This document shows, in pieces, positions 45,607 through 52,774 of a stretch of 64,000 bases of DNA (within the stretch, counting starts at the first letter, position 1; every line of letters starts with the position of its first letter). The notes beneath the pieces are model-generated. The model had not been told where the DNA came from. It made no database searches and was given only the letters and a program-made list of their open reading frames with translations. Position numbers and translations under genes: made by a program. Where the stretch lies: positions 1,306,984 through 1,370,983 of the forward strand of contig CAVRJP010000001.1 in the NCBI GenBank assembly GCA_963721765.1. The letters are read 5' to 3'. This DNA is from an uncultured Chloroflexia bacterium (GTDB lineage Bacteria; Chloroflexota; Limnocylindria; Limnocylindrales; CSP1-4).

Positions 45607-45912
45607 TCAGGCCAGCGTCGACAGGTCCGTCGGCGGCAGGCGCTGGTGCAGCACGAAACCGGCCCACACCTCGCCGTGTTGCGCGCGCCGAAGCGCGAGG
45701 TGCGCGGTCGCGACGAGCGCGGCGTCGAGCGGGATCGTCGCCTCCGCCTCGGTCACGAGCGGCTCCAGTCGTTCGGCGAGCTCGGCCAGCGCCTCGCGGG
45801 CGGCCTGCACGTCGTCGTCGCCGAGCTCCCGGAACGTCGACGCCAGCGCATCCCACCGGGCTGCCTCATCCGCACCCGTGTCGATGGCCTGCCGAAGCTT
45901 CGACGCGTCCAT
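45607..45912 (-). CDS. Hypothetical 101-aa acidic protein, last gene of the giant-protein locus
   Basis: ORF 45607..45912. ATG lies 5 nt after the giant gene's TAG. 'MDASKLRQAIDTGADEAARWDALASTFRELGDDDVQAAREALAELAERLEPLVTEAEA' looks helical. No family recognised. Confidence 0.55.
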   Translation of the reverse strand: MDASKLRQAIDTGADEAARWDALASTFRELGDDDVQAAREALAELAERLEPLVTEAEATIPLDAALVATAHLALRRAQHGEVWAGFVLHQRLPPTDLSTLA

Positions 45913-45917
45913 CCGGG

Positions 45918-51900: not shown

Positions 51901-52178
51901 CTCGTCGCTGAGGCACCGCGGAGGGTGTCCAGGCCGACCTGGAGCGCGTCGGCGAAGTCCGCGTAGGTCGCCGCATCGGCACAGGAGCTGAGGATCCCGC
52001 CGGCGGCGCCGGCGCTGACGGTGCAGCCATCGGCGGCCCGGACCGGCGCGGGTGGGGCGGCAACGTCGATGAATGCCGCGGACTGGAACGCGATGACCAG
52101 CTGGAACGCGAGCACGGCCAGGCGACGGCGCAGCACGCCACGACCGCCGCTGTCCCGAGCATCCCCGCGGCGAATCAC
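45918..52178 (-). CDS. Giant (2086-aa) multi-domain membrane protein: signal/anchor, PEGA-like, Asp-box and propeller-like motifs, glutaredoxin-like CPAC module, long unknown region, 3 TM helices, C-terminal protein-kinase-like region
   Basis: Single uninterrupted ORF 45918..52178 (GTG). Balanced composition with K, N, Y, F, I, W throughout. The overlapping alternative-frame ORFs (47493..50336, 50463..51911) are Arg/Gly/Pro/Asp junk. Motif details are in the findings. Confidence 0.85.
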   Translation of the reverse strand: MIRRGDARDSGGRGVLRRRLAVLAFQLVIAFQSAAFIDVAAPPAPVRAADGCTVSAGAAGGILSSCADAATYADFADALQVGLDTLRGASATSELIVGSNQDGATVTLNGLPAGVTPLDAVLPAGTYLVRVTKDGYAPFSKTVTIDADTPGKLTAGLEPLGGSAGSFEWIRPETLITVANGFHDGGFDITGYVRDKDGVDYVAFTNSKTVEVEFEEPTEMAGYGEWLKSDRDSITMVGVAKSTDDGRTWSLVKTWTGDYSARTWTSERFIDRDWAAGKPGTVKQHWIRAYYHEERKEQYLISSMVPRPTGGVAVHVTKSVSHQPQELMLIWDNLTASYCREDDATDECFRIDHPGRYIGSVKAPFTTSLVADVGSDGTYRRVATPQASDRFGVTPQDLATYNLVRELTTVAYDTGTGAEPQLANISNRVLYQASHDGADYFLEIVPDCCATEGTVWVARAGGPPVIERTYTLGGDGPKGSNRLEQLHVGPDGTIYVLDHIRGHVYVLGADGATLLGSVSPDVYGGIYGPGNPSSNFLSSAVDSGGNVHVAFRVGAYPPGDDDPDRVNVYYEHFPREKVAFESVALFTEPDCPACDAARDWLTAAEIPFRENPTDLPADVAASVGAAQGSEGLPVVARLGQENVVKGGADPGAISRLLGVPYPILVDTHPIKAGRSRDGRIIGWQPEWALLILEADQPRVITQRDEGVVAFSPAAGGWTPQLVMGTPPPAPVDEYNSPDGLTTAYFPRYPIFPGGIATPSYGTNRAAPFNTIESVGDLRFLFRSDSGNTVNRYGYTLHTTKSAPMSSAYRASAQVSQLIPATAFDILLGPKGSASTVRGELAAYVTSEGQATDGSDRFYRVVVDLRAQNETAVDGNLQARAIGGSIQLETEADDGTPETREINLILFVDNTRLRVTSPEPGGSARDISAEAVHFTGTNERWVVTNNLALTNEVPCGADQSVLLPPHSTSTFSAAEVASFELSSCMDALEVAPTVLTGCESWEDAKLVLAAQTIESFGQSLALERTEESTNYELSFGSRDASVRRIVSIDELAGDGPACASELAGATAAVVSVSGTIMGDGEPFTPRITVIDSGREAVRTAPTALPGGLAWEREWLEFEANFLELSLKSSIADEALSSLMFLSTAGKKLGYQRQLLATRALLHCNYEGVEVASVVGLVERSAANPDALRLTAVCLQDFVLNSTEHWPSFDRALWSGGQFQAGFVGTVINSSLAANPTLGFLVAAAKAEPRTYGEFVFARAELLAAKAAANADVANQATDFQLDHLARILTASAREMTGATGAMTKVALMSGPVERAAVSAVLDCARSFGTANPFPKLFELTKLIAYTAGIPCVERQANAEAKVMAYRQLVVGIRSGTFAALLEASGRDLDLLYAHLELIGKIIKDVEAAEARYPIGTSIVRWNEDLTPLDRFVLVRQHAAGVVEARGRQMTVREAAQILAGLTECGAGLVKGLFSGEGILMLGLGVSAAIAGPTAAALGGVAFFVSGVAFTGLASSSLAQMWDSMDLAGKTAGVCGVAASAMMTVVAGRGGYAAVRGWTPKELQFSPPARINLKFTRSRGKAQGAGIDEQADALGRRGGAVAEEPAPVPVPAETSLRAVLDALPHAKQPIIRALAERLDYSRMDVAVRAAFDELARAYGEASGVASLLARRRAKIDEINGRAGNQTAALDPWVRIGGAMALDLVPGRPKSLRVEVTPEGLAGSDAELVLAAADDARFGDMEGSPRRGASEADIRAGTSLTQAFLRSNRAREALSAPSGARALTSEEAAFLARLQKLTRPDVTTFYVASLARTAIIDALREGIAAAQALYGIPAGTKVTAMTADFVAEGVFKSAFRLRVTFAGRAAPVEIAFKKGIITEAEFALLQELGAKGLTQKPFLRSALENVDGNEAISVEEWVPGDGLLQAFGKADAASSAVGGFDALLFLRTVRGAGADARAYYNKDLHWNNMKAYPEGGGMKAKAVDFDPQFKVEATPDQYFAASLMRRYGSFNFAVPSFKAYLQGIVDAFASEPGGSAAAALGLIRKARNNLNDPALRTDVLSIQSFSGTPDIAASVRLVVAEIDGFLASH

Positions 52179-52774
52179 GGCGCTACCCCGGCCTGCACGG
52201 CCGCCTGGTAGGTCGCGCCACTCCCGATCAGGTGGACGGTCAGGCCCGCGTCATAGGCGCCTGCGAGCGCGGCAGGATCGAGGTCCGGGCTGTCGTCGAC
52301 CACGAACACGACGAGGTACTCCCGGAGCGCGTCGACGGTTGCGTCGCGGTAGGCGAGTGGATCGACGGCGCCGAGCGACCCGCGCAGGTCCGTGAGCCAC
52401 TGCTGCTCCGTCGTGGTGAGCGAATCGGTCGAGTCGACGAGGAGCACGACGTCCGTCGTCGCGGGCGTCGGGAGGAGGTCGTACACGGGCTCGACCGTGG
52501 GGACCGCGGTTGGTCCGACGGCCGTGCCACTGGAGGCACCGGGTCCCGCCGACGAGCCCGGACTCGCGATCGGGTTGCCTCCGCCGCCTCCGAAGACGAT
52601 GGCCACGAGCAAGACGCCCGTGACCGCGGCGCCACCACCCGCCGCGTAGACGCCGCGCCGGCCGAATCGCTGTTCGATCGCCGCGACGCCGGTGCGCGCC
52701 GTGGTTCCCGCCCGGGCGATCAGCGCGCGCGCGATCCGTCCAACGCGAGCGAGCGGTGATCCATTCGCGGACAC
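52175..52774 (-). CDS. Hypothetical single-pass membrane protein, first gene of the giant-protein locus
   Basis: 3' 600 nt of ORF 52175..53062, GTG 52774. TM helix 'AAVTGVLLVAIVFGGGG', Gly/Ser/Pro linker, then a domain of about 110 aa ('VVLLVDSTDSLTTTEQQWL...LVVFVVDDSPDL'). The TGA overlaps the giant gene's GTG (GTGA). Confidence 0.55.
   Translation of the reverse strand: MSANGSPLARVGRIARALIARAGTTARTGVAAIEQRFGRRGVYAAGGGAAVTGVLLVAIVFGGGGGNPIASPGSSAGPGASSGTAVGPTAVPTVEPVYDLLPTPATTDVVLLVDSTDSLTTTEQQWLTDLRGSLGAVDPLAYRDATVDALREYLVVFVVDDSPDLDPAALAGAYDAGLTVHLIGSGATYQAAVQAGVAP

Follow-up and report, generated by a model that had tools for sequence, protein, structure and literature searches.

A 2086-residue cell-surface protein with a predicted kinase-like tail, encoded in a very rare operon

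Hanks-type receptor Ser/Thr kinases couple an extracytoplasmic sensor to a cytoplasmic kinase fold. The sensor of M. tuberculosis PknD is an NHL beta-propeller and that of PknB/PrkC consists of PASTA domains; in both PknB and PknD, the kinase is N-terminal and the sensor C-terminal. The protein described here, which we call the giant, appears to share with these kinases an external sensor (propeller-like in this case) coupled to a cytoplasmic kinase fold, as well as the catalytic Asp and Asn, both conserved, and an acidic residue that binds metal. However, its order is reversed, running from signal peptide through sensor and membrane to a C-terminal kinase-like (PKL) domain. Moreover, no Pkinase HMM matches it and neither GxGxxG nor APE is present, the membrane part is a Gly-rich block of three segments instead of a single TM helix, the ectodomain would be about five times larger, and an obligatory tethered partner appears to reside outside the cell.

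Eukaryotic type-I receptor kinases (RTKs, plant RLKs) and plexin/sortilin-type receptors have the same orientation as the giant: a signal peptide precedes a large, disulfide-bonded ectodomain of several domains, propellers among them, which leads across the membrane to an intracellular kinase-like output. This likeness is reflected in Foldseek matches to the ROS1 ectodomain and the sema domain of plexin, and in Sortilin-Vps10 Pfam matches of the archaeal subunit A described below. Unlike these receptors, the giant has a prokaryotic host, a different atypical PKL family and no detectable sequence homology to them, and the resemblance is one of analogy, not membership. For the N-terminal half of the giant, the closest structure (E 4.6e-5, with a low-confidence giant model of pLDDT 57) is the twin-propeller periplasmic sensor of Bacteroides hybrid two-component systems of the BT4673 type (PDB 3ott), whose output is HisKA/HATPase/receiver/AraC rather than PKL; Pfam Reg_prop and Y_Y_Y do not match the giant. 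The PKL domain matches APH/choline kinases and PI3K/PI4K at the fold level (APH(3')-Ia, 3dxp, PI3Kgamma), sharing with these atypical kinases the D-x-x-x-x-N loop, a His two residues past the Asp, and the D-F-x metal loop. It differs from them in the replacement of the first His of the Brenner motif H-x-D-x-x-x-x-N (N-K-D here), in its fusion to a giant ectodomain, and in matching no family HMM. A sequence-only reading of this DNA had assigned the locus to no described system, and nothing that we found, Pfam, NCBIfam and PADLOC included, assigns it to one.

The window, that is, the whole 64,000-nucleotide stretch analysed, carries the giant gene between two small genes, up and dn. Their features are the following:

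52175..52774, minus strand: up gene, 199 aa (ORF and codon-position GC)
52577..52636, minus strand: up membrane anchor, aa ~47-66, hydrophobic stretch AAVTGVLLVAIVF
52178..52486, minus strand: conserved, putatively extracytoplasmic domain of up, aa ~97-199 (alignment A6)
45918..52178, minus strand: giant gene, 2086 aa, 221 kDa (ORF, GC3, full-length homologues)
52032..52178, minus strand: signal peptide region of the giant, aa 1-49, basic then hydrophobic
51702..51902, minus strand: PEGA domain, aa 93-159 (Pfam PF08308)
50469..51671, minus strand: Asp-box/NHL-like, beta-propeller-like region, aa ~170-570 (invariant motifs, AF2, Foldseek)
50205..50444, minus strand: glutaredoxin/NrdH-like module, aa ~579-658 (invariant C591-P-A-C594, sub-threshold HMMs)
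48879..50201, minus strand: beta-rich module, aa ~660-1100 (motifs, AF2, archaeal alignment)
47844..48866, minus strand: all-alpha Cys-paired module, aa ~1105-1445 (AF2, archaeal conservation)
47529..47771, minus strand: Gly/Ala-rich block of three hydrophobic segments, aa ~1470-1550 (KD and Hessa scans, charge counts)
46719..47528, minus strand: Cys-free juxtamembrane and helical, putatively cytoplasmic region, aa ~1551-1820 (AF2, alignment)
45921..46718, minus strand: predicted PKL domain, aa ~1821-2086 (Foldseek, invariant residues)
45607..45912, minus strand: dn gene, 101 aa (ORF)

The three minus-strand reading frames and both junctions reported by the sequence-only reading are present: the up TGA (52177..52175) overlaps the giant GTG (52178..52176) in a GTGA junction at 52178..52175, and the dn ATG at 45912 lies 5 nt past the giant TAG (45920..45918). 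The up frame mechanically extends to 53062, but codon-position GC (0.75/0.58/0.85 within the 52774 start vs 0.54/0.70/0.80 in the extension) favours the start at 52774. Since the giant homologues begin at a position matching V15 (GTG at 52136), the true giant start may lie 42 nt past the overlap. The flanking genes code for an MFS transporter, a DUF5679 protein, a GNAT acetyltransferase, an unknown 211-aa protein, an F420H2 quinone reductase, an M19 dipeptidase and a GTPase. In agreement with the earlier reading, no secretion-system, sortase, S-layer or known toxin/immunity genes were found in the immediate flanks, and PADLOC returned zero matches.

The giant ORF is a real gene and is conserved, as the earlier judgement of credible coding had anticipated. 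Its GC by codon position is 0.68/0.51/0.92 across 6.3 kb, so that a high GC3 goes with normal GC1 and GC2. Six further full-length homologues share 34-66% identity with it, and an exhaustive search added others; these relatives have 1957-2173 aa and align end to end, more than 100 columns are invariant across 14 giants, and independent samples yield collinear full-length homologues as low as 29% identity. Divergence is faster in the C-terminal than in the N-terminal half (33-44% vs 43-64% identity on average in blocks of 100 aa), and the L002 locus carries three tandem giant paralogues with mosaic relationships. A non-functional gene, either an assembly chimera or a decaying ORF kept open by chance in GC-rich DNA, could be argued from the L007 relative, which is split into at least six ORFs. 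However, these breaks look like frameshift errors within one assembly, and the codon-position pattern, the collinear homologues and the invariant columns effectively refute such an origin. The operon is real and also very rare: the family comprises 42 matches among 1.84 billion representative proteins, and the bacterial relatives that bear a name or title belong to Limnocylindrales or Chloroflexi.

Pairing of up and giant is conserved in the bacterial loci. Homology of up was demonstrated in five loci (L001, L002 twice, L004 and L014), directly upstream of giants, and hhalign of up against the gene that precedes the most divergent giant gave a probability of 99.7% (E 1e-25). The P0005, P0006 and P0007 loci have a small overlapping upstream gene as well, and the overlap measures 1-4 nt in every bacterial locus with a visible upstream region. 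The up protein, described earlier as a 199-aa protein with one TM helix and found here to have a single hydrophobic anchor, consists of a short N-terminal cytoplasmic stretch, the anchor, a Pro/Ser/Gly linker and a C-terminal domain of ~100 aa with 55 invariant columns. This domain is predicted to lie outside the cell because both L002 copies carry a lipoprotein-type signal (...LAAC|GS) in place of the anchor. No match to up was found in Pfam, NCBIfam or PDB. The dn protein fits its earlier description as acidic and helical-looking (pI 4.56); it has no signal peptide and a GC3 of 0.89. Its homologues were found only in L001 and behind the first L002 paralogue, and other clades have unrelated genes downstream of the giant; dn therefore appears to be an accessory restricted to the clade of the window. 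Hence, of the three-gene unit proposed earlier, up and giant stand together in every visible bacterial locus, whereas dn is confined to its own clade. No conserved nearby substrate, response regulator or phosphatase was seen at the homologous loci inspected.

From the N-terminus, the giant comprises a signal peptide, PEGA, the Asp-box beta-propeller-like region, the glutaredoxin-like CPAC module, the beta-rich module, the all-alpha Cys-pair module, the hydrophobic block and a Cys-free tail ending in the PKL fold. All the motifs listed by the sequence-only reading occur at the residues given, including STDDGRTW (242-249), GPDG... (489-511), CPAC (591-594) and the kinase-like NKDLHWNN/VDFD near the C-terminus; the hydrophobic N-terminus was located at aa 19-42 (KD peak 1.86). 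Cleavage of the signal peptide is probable after VRAA, and an invariant pair, C52/C66, follows. Export would proceed via Sec rather than Tat because the RR motif is not conserved in homologues. The PEGA-like segment noticed earlier matches PF08308 (E 2.3e-16, 59.9 bits, cutoff 20.8). In the propeller-like region, the Asp-box residues S242, D244, G246 and W249 never vary, and neither do D491/G492 and D542/G545/N546. AF2 models this region as all-beta at low confidence (pLDDT 57), and Foldseek lends the propeller/NHL-like call weak fold support, with BT4673 sensor propellers, sialidases, the plexin sema domain and NHL propellers on top and the ROS1 ectodomain also matched. The glutaredoxin-like call is backed by HMMs below their curated cutoffs (NCBIfam TIGR02196, E 1.7e-5, positions 2-72/74; Pfam Glutaredoxin, E 0.01), and its CxxC is invariant in 14/14 giants and reads CNDC in the archaeal protein. 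The following ~800 aa had been described as having no motif, but AF2 and archaeal alignments resolve them into the beta-rich and all-alpha modules. The beta-rich module, the best-conserved part of the giant, has the motifs VSQLIP and NNLALxNxxPCG and the Cys pairs 954/983 and 997/1057, is modelled mainly as strands with low pLDDT, and aligns with the last 470 aa of the upstream proteins in archaea. The all-alpha module (C1162/C1192, C1322/C1350) is modelled as helices throughout (pLDDT ~75-85). It is kept in the archaeal short proteins P0035, P0039 and P0045 right behind their own signal peptides, and for this reason is likely to be extracytoplasmic.

The three TM helices proposed earlier at aa ~1476-1553 correspond to a hydrophobic block at 1470-1550, but the segments are only marginally hydrophobic for membrane insertion: their summed Hessa scores are +1.9 to +3.5, several relatives have no scan window below 4, and AF2 gives a pLDDT below 40. 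The topology is thus deduced rather than shown. The block is conserved from Chloroflexi-type giants through archaeal short proteins and contains the invariant C1463 and C1533 and an acidic loop, QMWDSMD, followed by a conserved K/R-rich stretch. The 32 aa beyond segment c hold 7 K/R vs 1 D/E, and P0039 shows a comparable K/R excess past its last hydrophobic segment, with an acidic preceding loop. Cys residues follow the same partition. All 18 in the giant, mostly in conserved pairs, precede aa 1534 and the last 553 aa have none (probability ~0.004 if uniformly distributed); P0035, P0039 and P0045 have exactly 6 Cys each, all before or in segment c. This compartment-like pattern of Cys and charge, together with the archaeal signal peptide, strengthens the earlier proposal of a sensor outside and a kinase inside, and suggests that the giant spans the membrane.

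Behind the block, AF2 predicts helices from aa ~1609 (pLDDT ~85) in a region that has the conserved motifs LEEQA and PGRPKSL and of which a part also occurs in P0039 and P0045. The tail then ends, as modelling shows, in a predicted PKL fold that had previously gone unannotated (pLDDT ~78). Its best 50 Foldseek matches in PDB are all PKL folds (probability up to 1.0), among them PI3Kgamma, APH(3')-Ia, the putative APH 3dxp, a CMGC kinase, ASK1 and WNK3, with E 3e-4 to 2e-3, modest values (~1e-4 to 1e-3) accompanied by low TM-scores since the model is multi-domain. Alignment places the G-loop at G1846/K1849, followed by K1870/K1871, E1878, the hinge E1913, the catalytic loop N-K-D1960-L-H1962-W-N-N1965 and V-D1981-F-D. 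D1960 and N1965 do not vary across 14 giants and 15 distant family members, and the VDFD acidic residue, the Lys and the alphaC Glu are conserved. The putative catalytic residues are therefore intact by alignment, and the domain may well have kinase activity. The kinase-like tail of the sequence-only reading accordingly stands at the fold level but not at the level of kinase-family sequence models: no Pfam or NCBIfam model detects the domain, including the APH, Choline_kinase, PI3_PI4_kinase, ABC1, RIO, Kdo and Pkinase HMMs, profile-to-sequence alignments to APH(3')-II and PKA fall short of significance, and no GxGxxG, APE or activation-segment motif is visible.

In the DPANN-type archaeal loci (Micrarchaeota, Aenigmatarchaeota and Diapherotrites), the giant counterpart is divided at giant aa ~1090-1105 into two adjacent genes, collinear and overlapping or abutting at the P0039 (MBI5226686.1, Ca. 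Micrarchaeota), P0045, P0035 and P0050 loci. Gene A (1484-1851 aa) has propellers matching Pfam PSII_BNR/Sortilin-Vps10, the CxxC glutaredoxin-like module and the beta module, and aligns with giant aa ~542-1089; gene B (868-1065 aa) has its own signal peptide, the helical Cys module, the hydrophobic block and the cytoplasmic part, aligning from aa ~1105 onward. These alignments show true homologues with collinear modules, related to the giant by fusion or splitting. Unlike the giant, they form two polypeptides, have no reported PEGA match and no up or dn homologue, and do not always end in PKL: P0035 has a PKL cytoplasmic end like the giants, whereas P0039 and P0045 have different domains there, likewise without annotation. 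As every one of these archaeal proteins is an unannotated hypothetical protein, they tell us nothing further about function. At L010, an S-layer/PKD protein is encoded 1.7 kb downstream.

Our preferred explanation, held with moderate confidence, is a cell-surface receptor complex whose sensor faces outward and whose output within the cell is an atypical kinase. The giant would be exported through its Sec signal peptide and anchored by the highly conserved Gly/Ala-rich block, leaving ~1400 disulfide-bonded residues outside (PEGA, Asp-box beta-propeller(s), glutaredoxin-like CxxC, beta-rich and all-alpha modules) and ~530 Cys-free residues, ending in the PKL domain, in the cytoplasm. The up protein, made by coupled translation, would be an accessory subunit tethered to the membrane on the outside of the cell, in some relatives through a lipid anchor. 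The ectodomain may be altered when an external ligand binds or when the redox state of the CxxC module changes; this alteration would be relayed through the membrane block and switch the kinase-like domain, leading to phosphorylation of a substrate. In this clade, dn is a candidate partner or substrate. We infer both the signalling role and the nature of the ligand. In favour of a receptor, PEGA and propeller-like modules are typical of extracytoplasmic sensors. The alignments also show a core of the family, made up of the all-alpha module, the block and the cytoplasmic part, that in archaea is a protein of its own. Signal-transduction receptors, too, combine a constant sensor/membrane core with a cytoplasmic end that varies.

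The ectodomain and its tethered partner might instead serve mainly as an adhesin, a wall- or S-layer-associated scaffold or a cell-cell contact device, with the block as a mere anchor and the kinase-like tail as a minor regulatory part or pseudo-enzyme. Micrarchaeota, Aenigmatarchaeota and Diapherotrites are thought to rely on surface contacts with other cells, which suits this account, as do BNR/Sortilin-like propellers, common in surface binders, the S-layer/PKD neighbour at L010, the L002 tandem paralogues, which resemble diversification of surface proteins, and PEGA, first described in cell-surface proteins (PMC2447325). We consider it unlikely: the catalytic Asp/Asn and the metal-binding acidic residue are kept in bacteria and archaea, which argues for an active enzyme, the block is conserved far beyond the needs of a simple anchor, and the giant has no repeats or stalk typical of fibrillar adhesins. 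Alternatively, the giant could be a secreted AB-type toxin, or a protein that delivers an effector, whose propeller and PEGA bind a target cell, whose all-alpha module and hydrophobic segments enter its membrane, and whose PKL domain is the delivered warhead, dn being an immunity factor or chaperone. Gly/Ala-rich segments such as these resemble the glycine zippers of pore-forming proteins and are too weak for confident stop-transfer; the faster-diverging C-terminal half, the mosaic L002 paralogues, the variable C-terminal domain of archaeal B proteins, the small acidic gene directly after the giant and the Cys-free cargo, typical of translocated domains, point the same way. Nevertheless, all bacterial giants have the same homologous PKL tail, with no demarcation motif leading into toxin domains of unrelated kinds, most loci lack the putative immunity gene, the K/R cluster fits the positive-inside rule, neither a secretion system nor a known toxin domain was found, and free-living streamlined Limnocylindria would be unlikely toxin producers (PMC13212565). 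Such a function is quite improbable.

We also judge improbable a membrane-tethered small-molecule or lipid kinase, acting in the manner of APH/choline kinases or PI3K/PI4K, its substrate being a lipid, a sugar or an antibiotic at the inner face of the membrane, with a separate or loosely coupled ectodomain. PI3/PI4-kinases carry DRHxxN, similar to the D-L-H-x-x-N of the catalytic loop, the domain adjoins the membrane, no APE or activation-segment motif is visible, and the best Foldseek matches are PI3Kgamma (helical and kinase domains, ~600 aligned columns) and aminoglycoside phosphotransferases. However, the protein kinases CMGC, ASK1 and WNK3 score equally, the PI3_PI4_kinase and APH HMMs give no match, and the rmsd in the PI3K alignments is ~23 Å. 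This possibility concerns the substrate only and is compatible with the receptor model.

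We class the giant 2086-aa protein as a putative transmembrane receptor whose predicted output is kinase-like; it contains a new family of the protein-kinase-like (PKL) superfamily. The three minus-strand ORFs lie at the positions that the sequence-only reading had given, and their parts are listed here ("giants" denotes this protein and its full-length relatives):

52175..52774, minus strand: upstream gene, 199 aa
45918..52178, minus strand: giant gene, 2086 aa
giant aa 19-42: hydrophobic core of a signal peptide, then VRAA/DGC and the invariant pair C52/C66
giant aa 93-159: PEGA domain (PF08308; E 2.3e-16, 59.9 bits against a gathering score of 20.8)
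giant aa ~170-570: Asp-box/blade region, with a canonical Asp-box (S242, D244, G246, W249) and blade-like motifs
giant aa 579-658: glutaredoxin/NrdH-like module, CPAC invariant in 14/14 giants
giant aa ~660-1100: beta-rich module carrying VSQLIP, NNLALxNxxPCG and two conserved Cys pairs
giant aa 1105-1445: all-alpha module (pLDDT ~75-85), invariant pairs C1162/C1192 and C1322/C1350
giant aa 1470-1550: Gly/Ala-rich hydrophobic block, from hydrophobicity scans
giant aa ~1821-2086: PKL domain of the C-terminal tail
45607..45912, minus strand: downstream gene, 101 aa

The upstream and giant genes overlap in a GTGA at 52178..52175, which joins the TGA of the former to the GTG of the latter. The giant gene stops with TAG (45920..45918) and the downstream gene starts at 45912, 5 nt further on; as a convergent gene ends at 45602, the transcription unit should end there. 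On the 5' side of 52774, an intergenic region of 127 nt leads to the start (52902) of a divergent F420H2-dependent quinone reductase gene. Codon-position GC favours 52774 as the start of the upstream gene over a longer mechanical ORF reaching 53062, and the starts of homologues match V15 of the giant, whose translation may thus begin instead at the GTG of 52136. A promoter and terminator scan of 45300..53100 returned no match, which is uninformative in 70% GC DNA. The GC content of the whole window is 70%; non-streamlined Limnocylindrales families are described at 68% GC and 2.4-3.2 Mb (PMC13212565).

The giant ORF had been read as credibly coding. Its GC1/2/3 values of 0.68/0.51/0.92, the existence of full-length relatives and more than 100 invariant columns in an end-to-end alignment of 14 giants uphold this reading, and an artefactual locus is excluded. 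A word-indexed search of 5.8 billion proteins recovered six other full-length giants (34-66% identity, 2060-2160 aa), all annotated with PEGA alone. An exhaustive HMMER search of 1.84 billion cluster representatives with a profile of the C-terminal 531 aa gave 42 matches at E<=1e-3, about 10 of them further giants of 1957-2173 aa. Word-indexed searches with the PKL and core alignments returned one and two proteins, respectively, and scanning 185,579 species genomes yielded three loci in two uncultured Chloroflexi MAGs. The giant family is real but very rare, and its phyletic pattern is unusual: the relatives with names or titles come from Limnocylindrales or Chloroflexi bacteria, one partial relative carrying the name 'Candidatus Limnocylindrales bacterium', and from DPANN archaea. 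No locus was confirmed in two metagenome-contig scans, and viral-contig scans gave no relatives and hence no support for a phage origin. Searches of the literature on PEGA/kinase/Chloroflexi, on Limnocylindria and on DPANN BNR surface proteins brought up no earlier description of the locus, and no PADLOC-DB model matched any of the three proteins at E<=0.1.

Locus L002 (9423..26342 of JGI 3300066659) carries three tandem giant paralogues of 2113, 2077 and 2173 aa. The first is nearer to the giant of the window in the N-terminal 1470 aa (57% vs 48.5% for the second) and the second is nearer in the tail (49.5% vs 33%), which suggests mosaic evolution or unequal rates. At L007 (4223..10680 of ENA ERZ25039539), a giant relative is split over at least six consecutive same-strand ORFs (PEGA, glutaredoxin-like and others). 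These breaks are most likely frameshift errors of that assembly, a pseudogene being possible.

The proposed PEGA domain is a Pfam match above the gathering score in the giant of the window and a precomputed match in all giant homologues. Searches of all three proteins against Pfam and NCBIfam gave PEGA and sub-threshold glutaredoxin matches alone, and in the PDB neither phmmer nor profile searches found a significant match to the giant, its tail or the two small proteins; the PKL family and two extracytoplasmic modules are absent from current libraries. A Tat signal was rejected, the RR motif not being kept among homologues. The suggested Asp-box and propeller were borne out in part. The Asp-box at aa 242-249 is present in one canonical, invariant copy, further blade-like motifs occur at D491/G492 and D542/G545/N546, and the mostly stranded AlphaFold2 (AF2) model of aa 50-1104 found its best Foldseek matches in the twin-propeller sensor domain of BT4673, sialidases, the plexin sema domain and NHL propellers, but the giant of the window lacks a BNR Pfam match and the model is weak (mean pLDDT 57). 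The region at aa ~170-570 is likely beta-propeller-like. The glutaredoxin-like reading of aa 579-658 retains its invariant CPAC and a near full-length alignment to TIGR02196 (E 1.7e-5; positions 2-72 of 74), but the scores fall under the curated cutoffs, both for TIGR02196 (25 bits vs 88.6) and for Pfam glutaredoxin (E 0.01). The low-confidence AF2 model shows strand-helix-strand-helix at this module. The best-conserved stretch of the giant is the beta-rich module that follows.

Three transmembrane helices had been proposed for the hydrophobic block. The hydrophobic stretches (segments a, b and c) are indeed present, but their Hessa scores are marginal: summed over 19-residue windows, they reach +1.9 at aa 1494-1512, +3.2 to +3.5 in the first segment and, by our own count without flanking charges, about +3 in the third. 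Some giant relatives have no Hessa window under 4, and AF2 is unconfident across the block. On the other hand, several sequence features point to the orientation of the protein. All 18 cysteines of the giant, mostly in conserved pairs, lie before aa 1534 and the last 553 aa are Cys-free (zero at aa 1551-2086); the archaeal relatives P0035, P0039 and P0045 contain exactly six cysteines each, all before or in the third segment. That segment is followed by 7 K/R vs 1 D/E in the giant and by a K/R-rich stretch in P0039 (by count) and, judging from the alignment, in P0035 and P0045, and the loop ahead of it, QxW[DE]xLD, is acidic. Moreover, C1463, immediately ahead of segment a, and C1533, where segment c begins, are both invariant. 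A disulfide between them, if present, would need both residues to face outward, so that segments a and b would form a hairpin and segment c alone would span the membrane. In the split archaeal form, the helical module comes directly after its own signal peptide. Because of the cysteine distribution, the K/R excess past segment c, the C1463/C1533 pair and the archaeal signal peptide, an N-terminus outside and a C-terminus inside the cell are favoured, and we consider this topology likely.

The tail had been said to end in a kinase-like motif set, and the PKL fold and the invariant D1960 and N1965 substantiate this view, but no kinase sequence model matches it. For aa 1095-2086, AF2 gave a model with good confidence across the tail (pLDDT ~78 over aa 1834-2086). 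Together with Foldseek, it reveals a two-lobed kinase fold, in which a hinge separates a beta-rich N-lobe with an alphaC helix from a helical C-lobe. The top 50 Foldseek matches in the PDB were all PKL folds (E 2.7e-4 to 2e-3, probability <=1.00), including PI3Kgamma, APH(3')-Ia, the putative APH 3dxp, a CMGC kinase, ASK1 and WNK3. The catalytic loop N-K-D-L-H-W-N-N, with D1960 and N1965 invariant in 14 giants and 15 distant members, and the V-D1981-F-D motif, whose first acidic residue is D in most members and E in three, supply the D-x-x-x-x-N and the downstream metal-binding Asp of the superfamily. The hinge residue E1913 is likewise invariant in the 14 giants and the 15-member distant alignment, and the G-loop Gly and Lys, Lys 1870/1871, alphaC E1878, H1962 and, in V-D1981-F-D, the acidic residue show full or nearly full conservation.

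At the sequence level, the giant belongs neither to the Hanks kinases nor to the APH/choline kinases, and no HMM match links it to the PI3K/PI4K group. Membership in the Hanks-type Ser/Thr kinases was rejected, as the motifs differ and the Pkinase HMMs (PF00069/PF07714) gave no match at E<=0.1, nor did the NCBIfam kinase models match the giant. Whereas Hanks kinases have a GxGxxG loop, the VAIK Lys, HRD, DFG and APE, the giant tail has a single Gly (G1846) with K1849, Lys 1870 or 1871, NKD, DFD and no APE. The APH/choline-kinase family (PF01636) was discarded for lack of an HMM match and for N-K-D-L-H-W-N-N in place of the Brenner motif H-x-D-x-x-x-x-N; the likeness to APH is at fold level alone. 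The DRHxxN of PI3K/PI4K is resembled by D-L-H-x-x-N, with H1962 near-invariant, and PF00454 gave no match. PI3Kgamma was the top Foldseek match over ~600 columns, but with an rmsd of ~23 Å and a TM score of 0.13-0.15. Comparing the PKL profile by hhalign with PKA (E 0.044, probability 1%) and APH(3')-II (E 0.19) gave no significant result, the tail motifs nonetheless falling in the expected register. Pfam matched no kinase family at E<=5 in the 15 distant PKL-tail members, and it gave no useful result on distant matches and alternative archaeal C-terminal domains; HisKA and HATPase_c had no Pfam or NCBIfam matches in the giant. Altogether, motifs and model indicate that the tail is a new and probably active family inside the PKL superfamily.

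The more distant matches of the exhaustive search include P0035 (1065 aa), P0039 (868 aa; Ca. Micrarchaeota) and P0045 (953 aa), which run from a signal peptide through the helical Cys module and the hydrophobic block to a cytoplasmic region; P0035 alone of the three ends in a PKL domain. At the loci of P0045, P0035 and a further relative, P0050, the gene directly upstream encodes 1484-1851 aa; it either stops 8 nt short of the next gene or shares 1-4 nt with it. Two of these upstream proteins have PSII_BNR / Sortilin-Vps10 matches; at the P0039 loci, the called upstream gene has 300-347 aa only. The C-terminal ~470 aa of the archaeal upstream protein are collinear with giant aa 542-1089 (BLASTP E 3e-26), spanning the glutaredoxin-like CxxC (CNDC), VSQLIP and NNLALxNxxCG, and the next gene resumes at giant aa ~1107. 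This collinearity reveals the Chloroflexi-type giant as a fusion at aa ~1090-1105, whose parts are separate and apparently co-translated partners in DPANN-type archaea. The fusion/split relation implies that the beta and helical modules work together, and that the core consists of the helical module, the membrane block and the cytoplasmic domain. P0033 and P0034 (Ca. Aenigmatarchaeota) are stand-alone PKL proteins. P0026, a 3026-aa multi-PKL protein from Ca. Diapherotrites (MBI4210877.1), matches the new family in three stretches and also has a signal peptide and, at its C-terminus, a RamC_N domain; as no hydrophobic block was detected in it, the family may also occur in fully secreted proteins. 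At locus L008 of Ca. Micrarchaeota (GCA_016212375.1), a 191-aa ankyrin-repeat-like protein (3801..4376), a possible cytoplasmic partner, is encoded directly downstream of the gene for the C-terminal-side subunit. Ankyrin repeats are unusual for archaea.

The proposed three-gene unit holds for the pairing of the upstream gene with the giant, but not for the downstream gene, which is missing from most loci. Homologues of the upstream gene overlap the giant gene by 1-4 nt at L001, the locus of the 66%-identical relative, at L002 (twice), at L004 and at L014, whose giant is the most divergent (29% identity) and where homology was detected by hhalign (probability 99.7%). A small overlapping gene also precedes the giants P0005, P0006 and P0007, and the third L002 paralogue is the sole giant without an upstream gene. 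At L002, a lipoprotein signal replaces the TM anchor of the upstream protein, which places its conserved ~100-aa domain outside the cell. Pfam, NCBIfam and PDB profile searches assigned the upstream protein to no recognisable family, and a MIDAS/vWA reading of 'VDSTDS' was dropped, the motif not being conserved. Homologues of the downstream gene were found solely at L001 and after the first L002 paralogue; the first two L002 giants each have their own upstream gene. The downstream gene was rejected as a universal third component. In other clades, the downstream genes are unrelated (alpha/beta-hydrolase-like protein, ABC transporter, small ORFs). Hence, the conserved unit consists of the upstream gene and the giant, with the downstream gene as a clade-specific accessory. 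Three genes follow the giant at L014 (12306..18309): one of 133 aa with a 4-nt overlap and no homology to the downstream gene, one for a 356-aa protein with faint NHL matches, and an ORF of >1629 aa.

Beyond these genes, the flanks show no conservation, and secretion, sortase and toxin genes are absent from them, as the sequence-only reading had stated. A 309-aa MMR_HSR1 + TGS GTPase gene (54839..55768, plus strand) has a counterpart on the opposite side of the L001 operon (10667..11596), which suggests that local synteny persists here in a rearranged form. A 249-aa HipA_2 family (HipA-like kinase) protein (56174..56923, minus strand; E 2.4e-17), encoded 3.4 kb upstream of the operon, has no sequence relation to the tail of the giant. 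A 639-aa protein (59353..61272, plus strand) combines two CBM96 carbohydrate-binding stretches (E 2.5e-63) with a calcineurin-like metallophosphoesterase domain. The 1453-aa ORF at 39284..43645 (minus strand) is a run-on whose Pfam matches (adenylate/guanylate cyclase, STAND-type AAA ATPase, TPR) are confined to its C-terminal ~900 aa. Opposite its 5' 1.4 kb lies a better supported MFS transporter gene (42230..43651, plus strand; GC3 0.91, MFS_1 E 2.5e-36), and the probable start of the cyclase-STAND-TPR gene is near 42,200.

We give an even chance to a receptor complex with a sensor outside the cell and an atypical cytoplasmic kinase as predicted output. The propeller, glutaredoxin-like, beta and helical modules, with the tethered upstream subunit, would sense an external ligand or a redox change; the signal would cross the unusually conserved Gly-rich membrane block, which would place the cytoplasmic kinase under its control. 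That the cytoplasmic end varies while the sensor and membrane core stay constant is taken as fitting a receptor. In their working, receptor Ser/Thr kinases are closest to the giant locus; eukaryotic type-I receptors share the orientation of the giant, unlike PknB and PknD. A lipid or small molecule as kinase substrate would be compatible with this receptor model, and seems improbable to us.

A surface or adhesion scaffold in which the kinase is secondary seems unlikely to us. Still less plausible is a secreted AB-type toxin, in which the weak hydrophobic segments would act as a glycine-zipper translocation device. The faster-evolving, mosaic C-terminal half of the giant and the small acidic gene downstream speak for such a toxin, but the PKL tail is uniform across the bacterial giants, the 'immunity' gene is missing from most loci and the charges follow a positive-inside pattern. 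A polymorphic toxin system of the CDI, Rhs, LXG or MafB type was rejected, given the lack of such Pfam domains, a homologous PKL tail in all bacterial giants and the non-conserved downstream gene.

One- and two-component systems are regarded as dominant in prokaryotic signalling, along with Hanks kinases whose kinase domain is N-terminal. If true, a giant sensor-first receptor with an unannotated kinase-like output would represent a new architecture together with a new PKL family. The archaeal fusion/split relation offers a natural 'Rosetta stone' for which parts cooperate, and the two-protein version, being smaller, should simplify both expression and structure determination. With the conserved glycine-rich membrane block and the extracytoplasmic CxxC module, a possible new mechanism of signalling across the membrane has concrete elements. 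More tentatively, and with more doubt than belief, the system may be new to science and common to both prokaryotic domains. It would comprise a sortilin/BNR-propeller ligand-binding part, a redox-capable CxxC module, a disulfide-stapled helical module, a conserved glycine-rich membrane transducer and swappable outputs (mainly the new PKL family), built as two subunits in DPANN archaea and as one 221-kDa chain in Limnocylindria, and exchanged horizontally between bacteria and archaea. Among prokaryotes, such a system would correspond to the type-I receptor kinases of eukaryotes, and it might serve cell-cell or host-symbiont recognition. Finally, the giant family is confined to uncultured, streamlined lineages, a hint that it may act in interactions needed by cells with reduced genomes.
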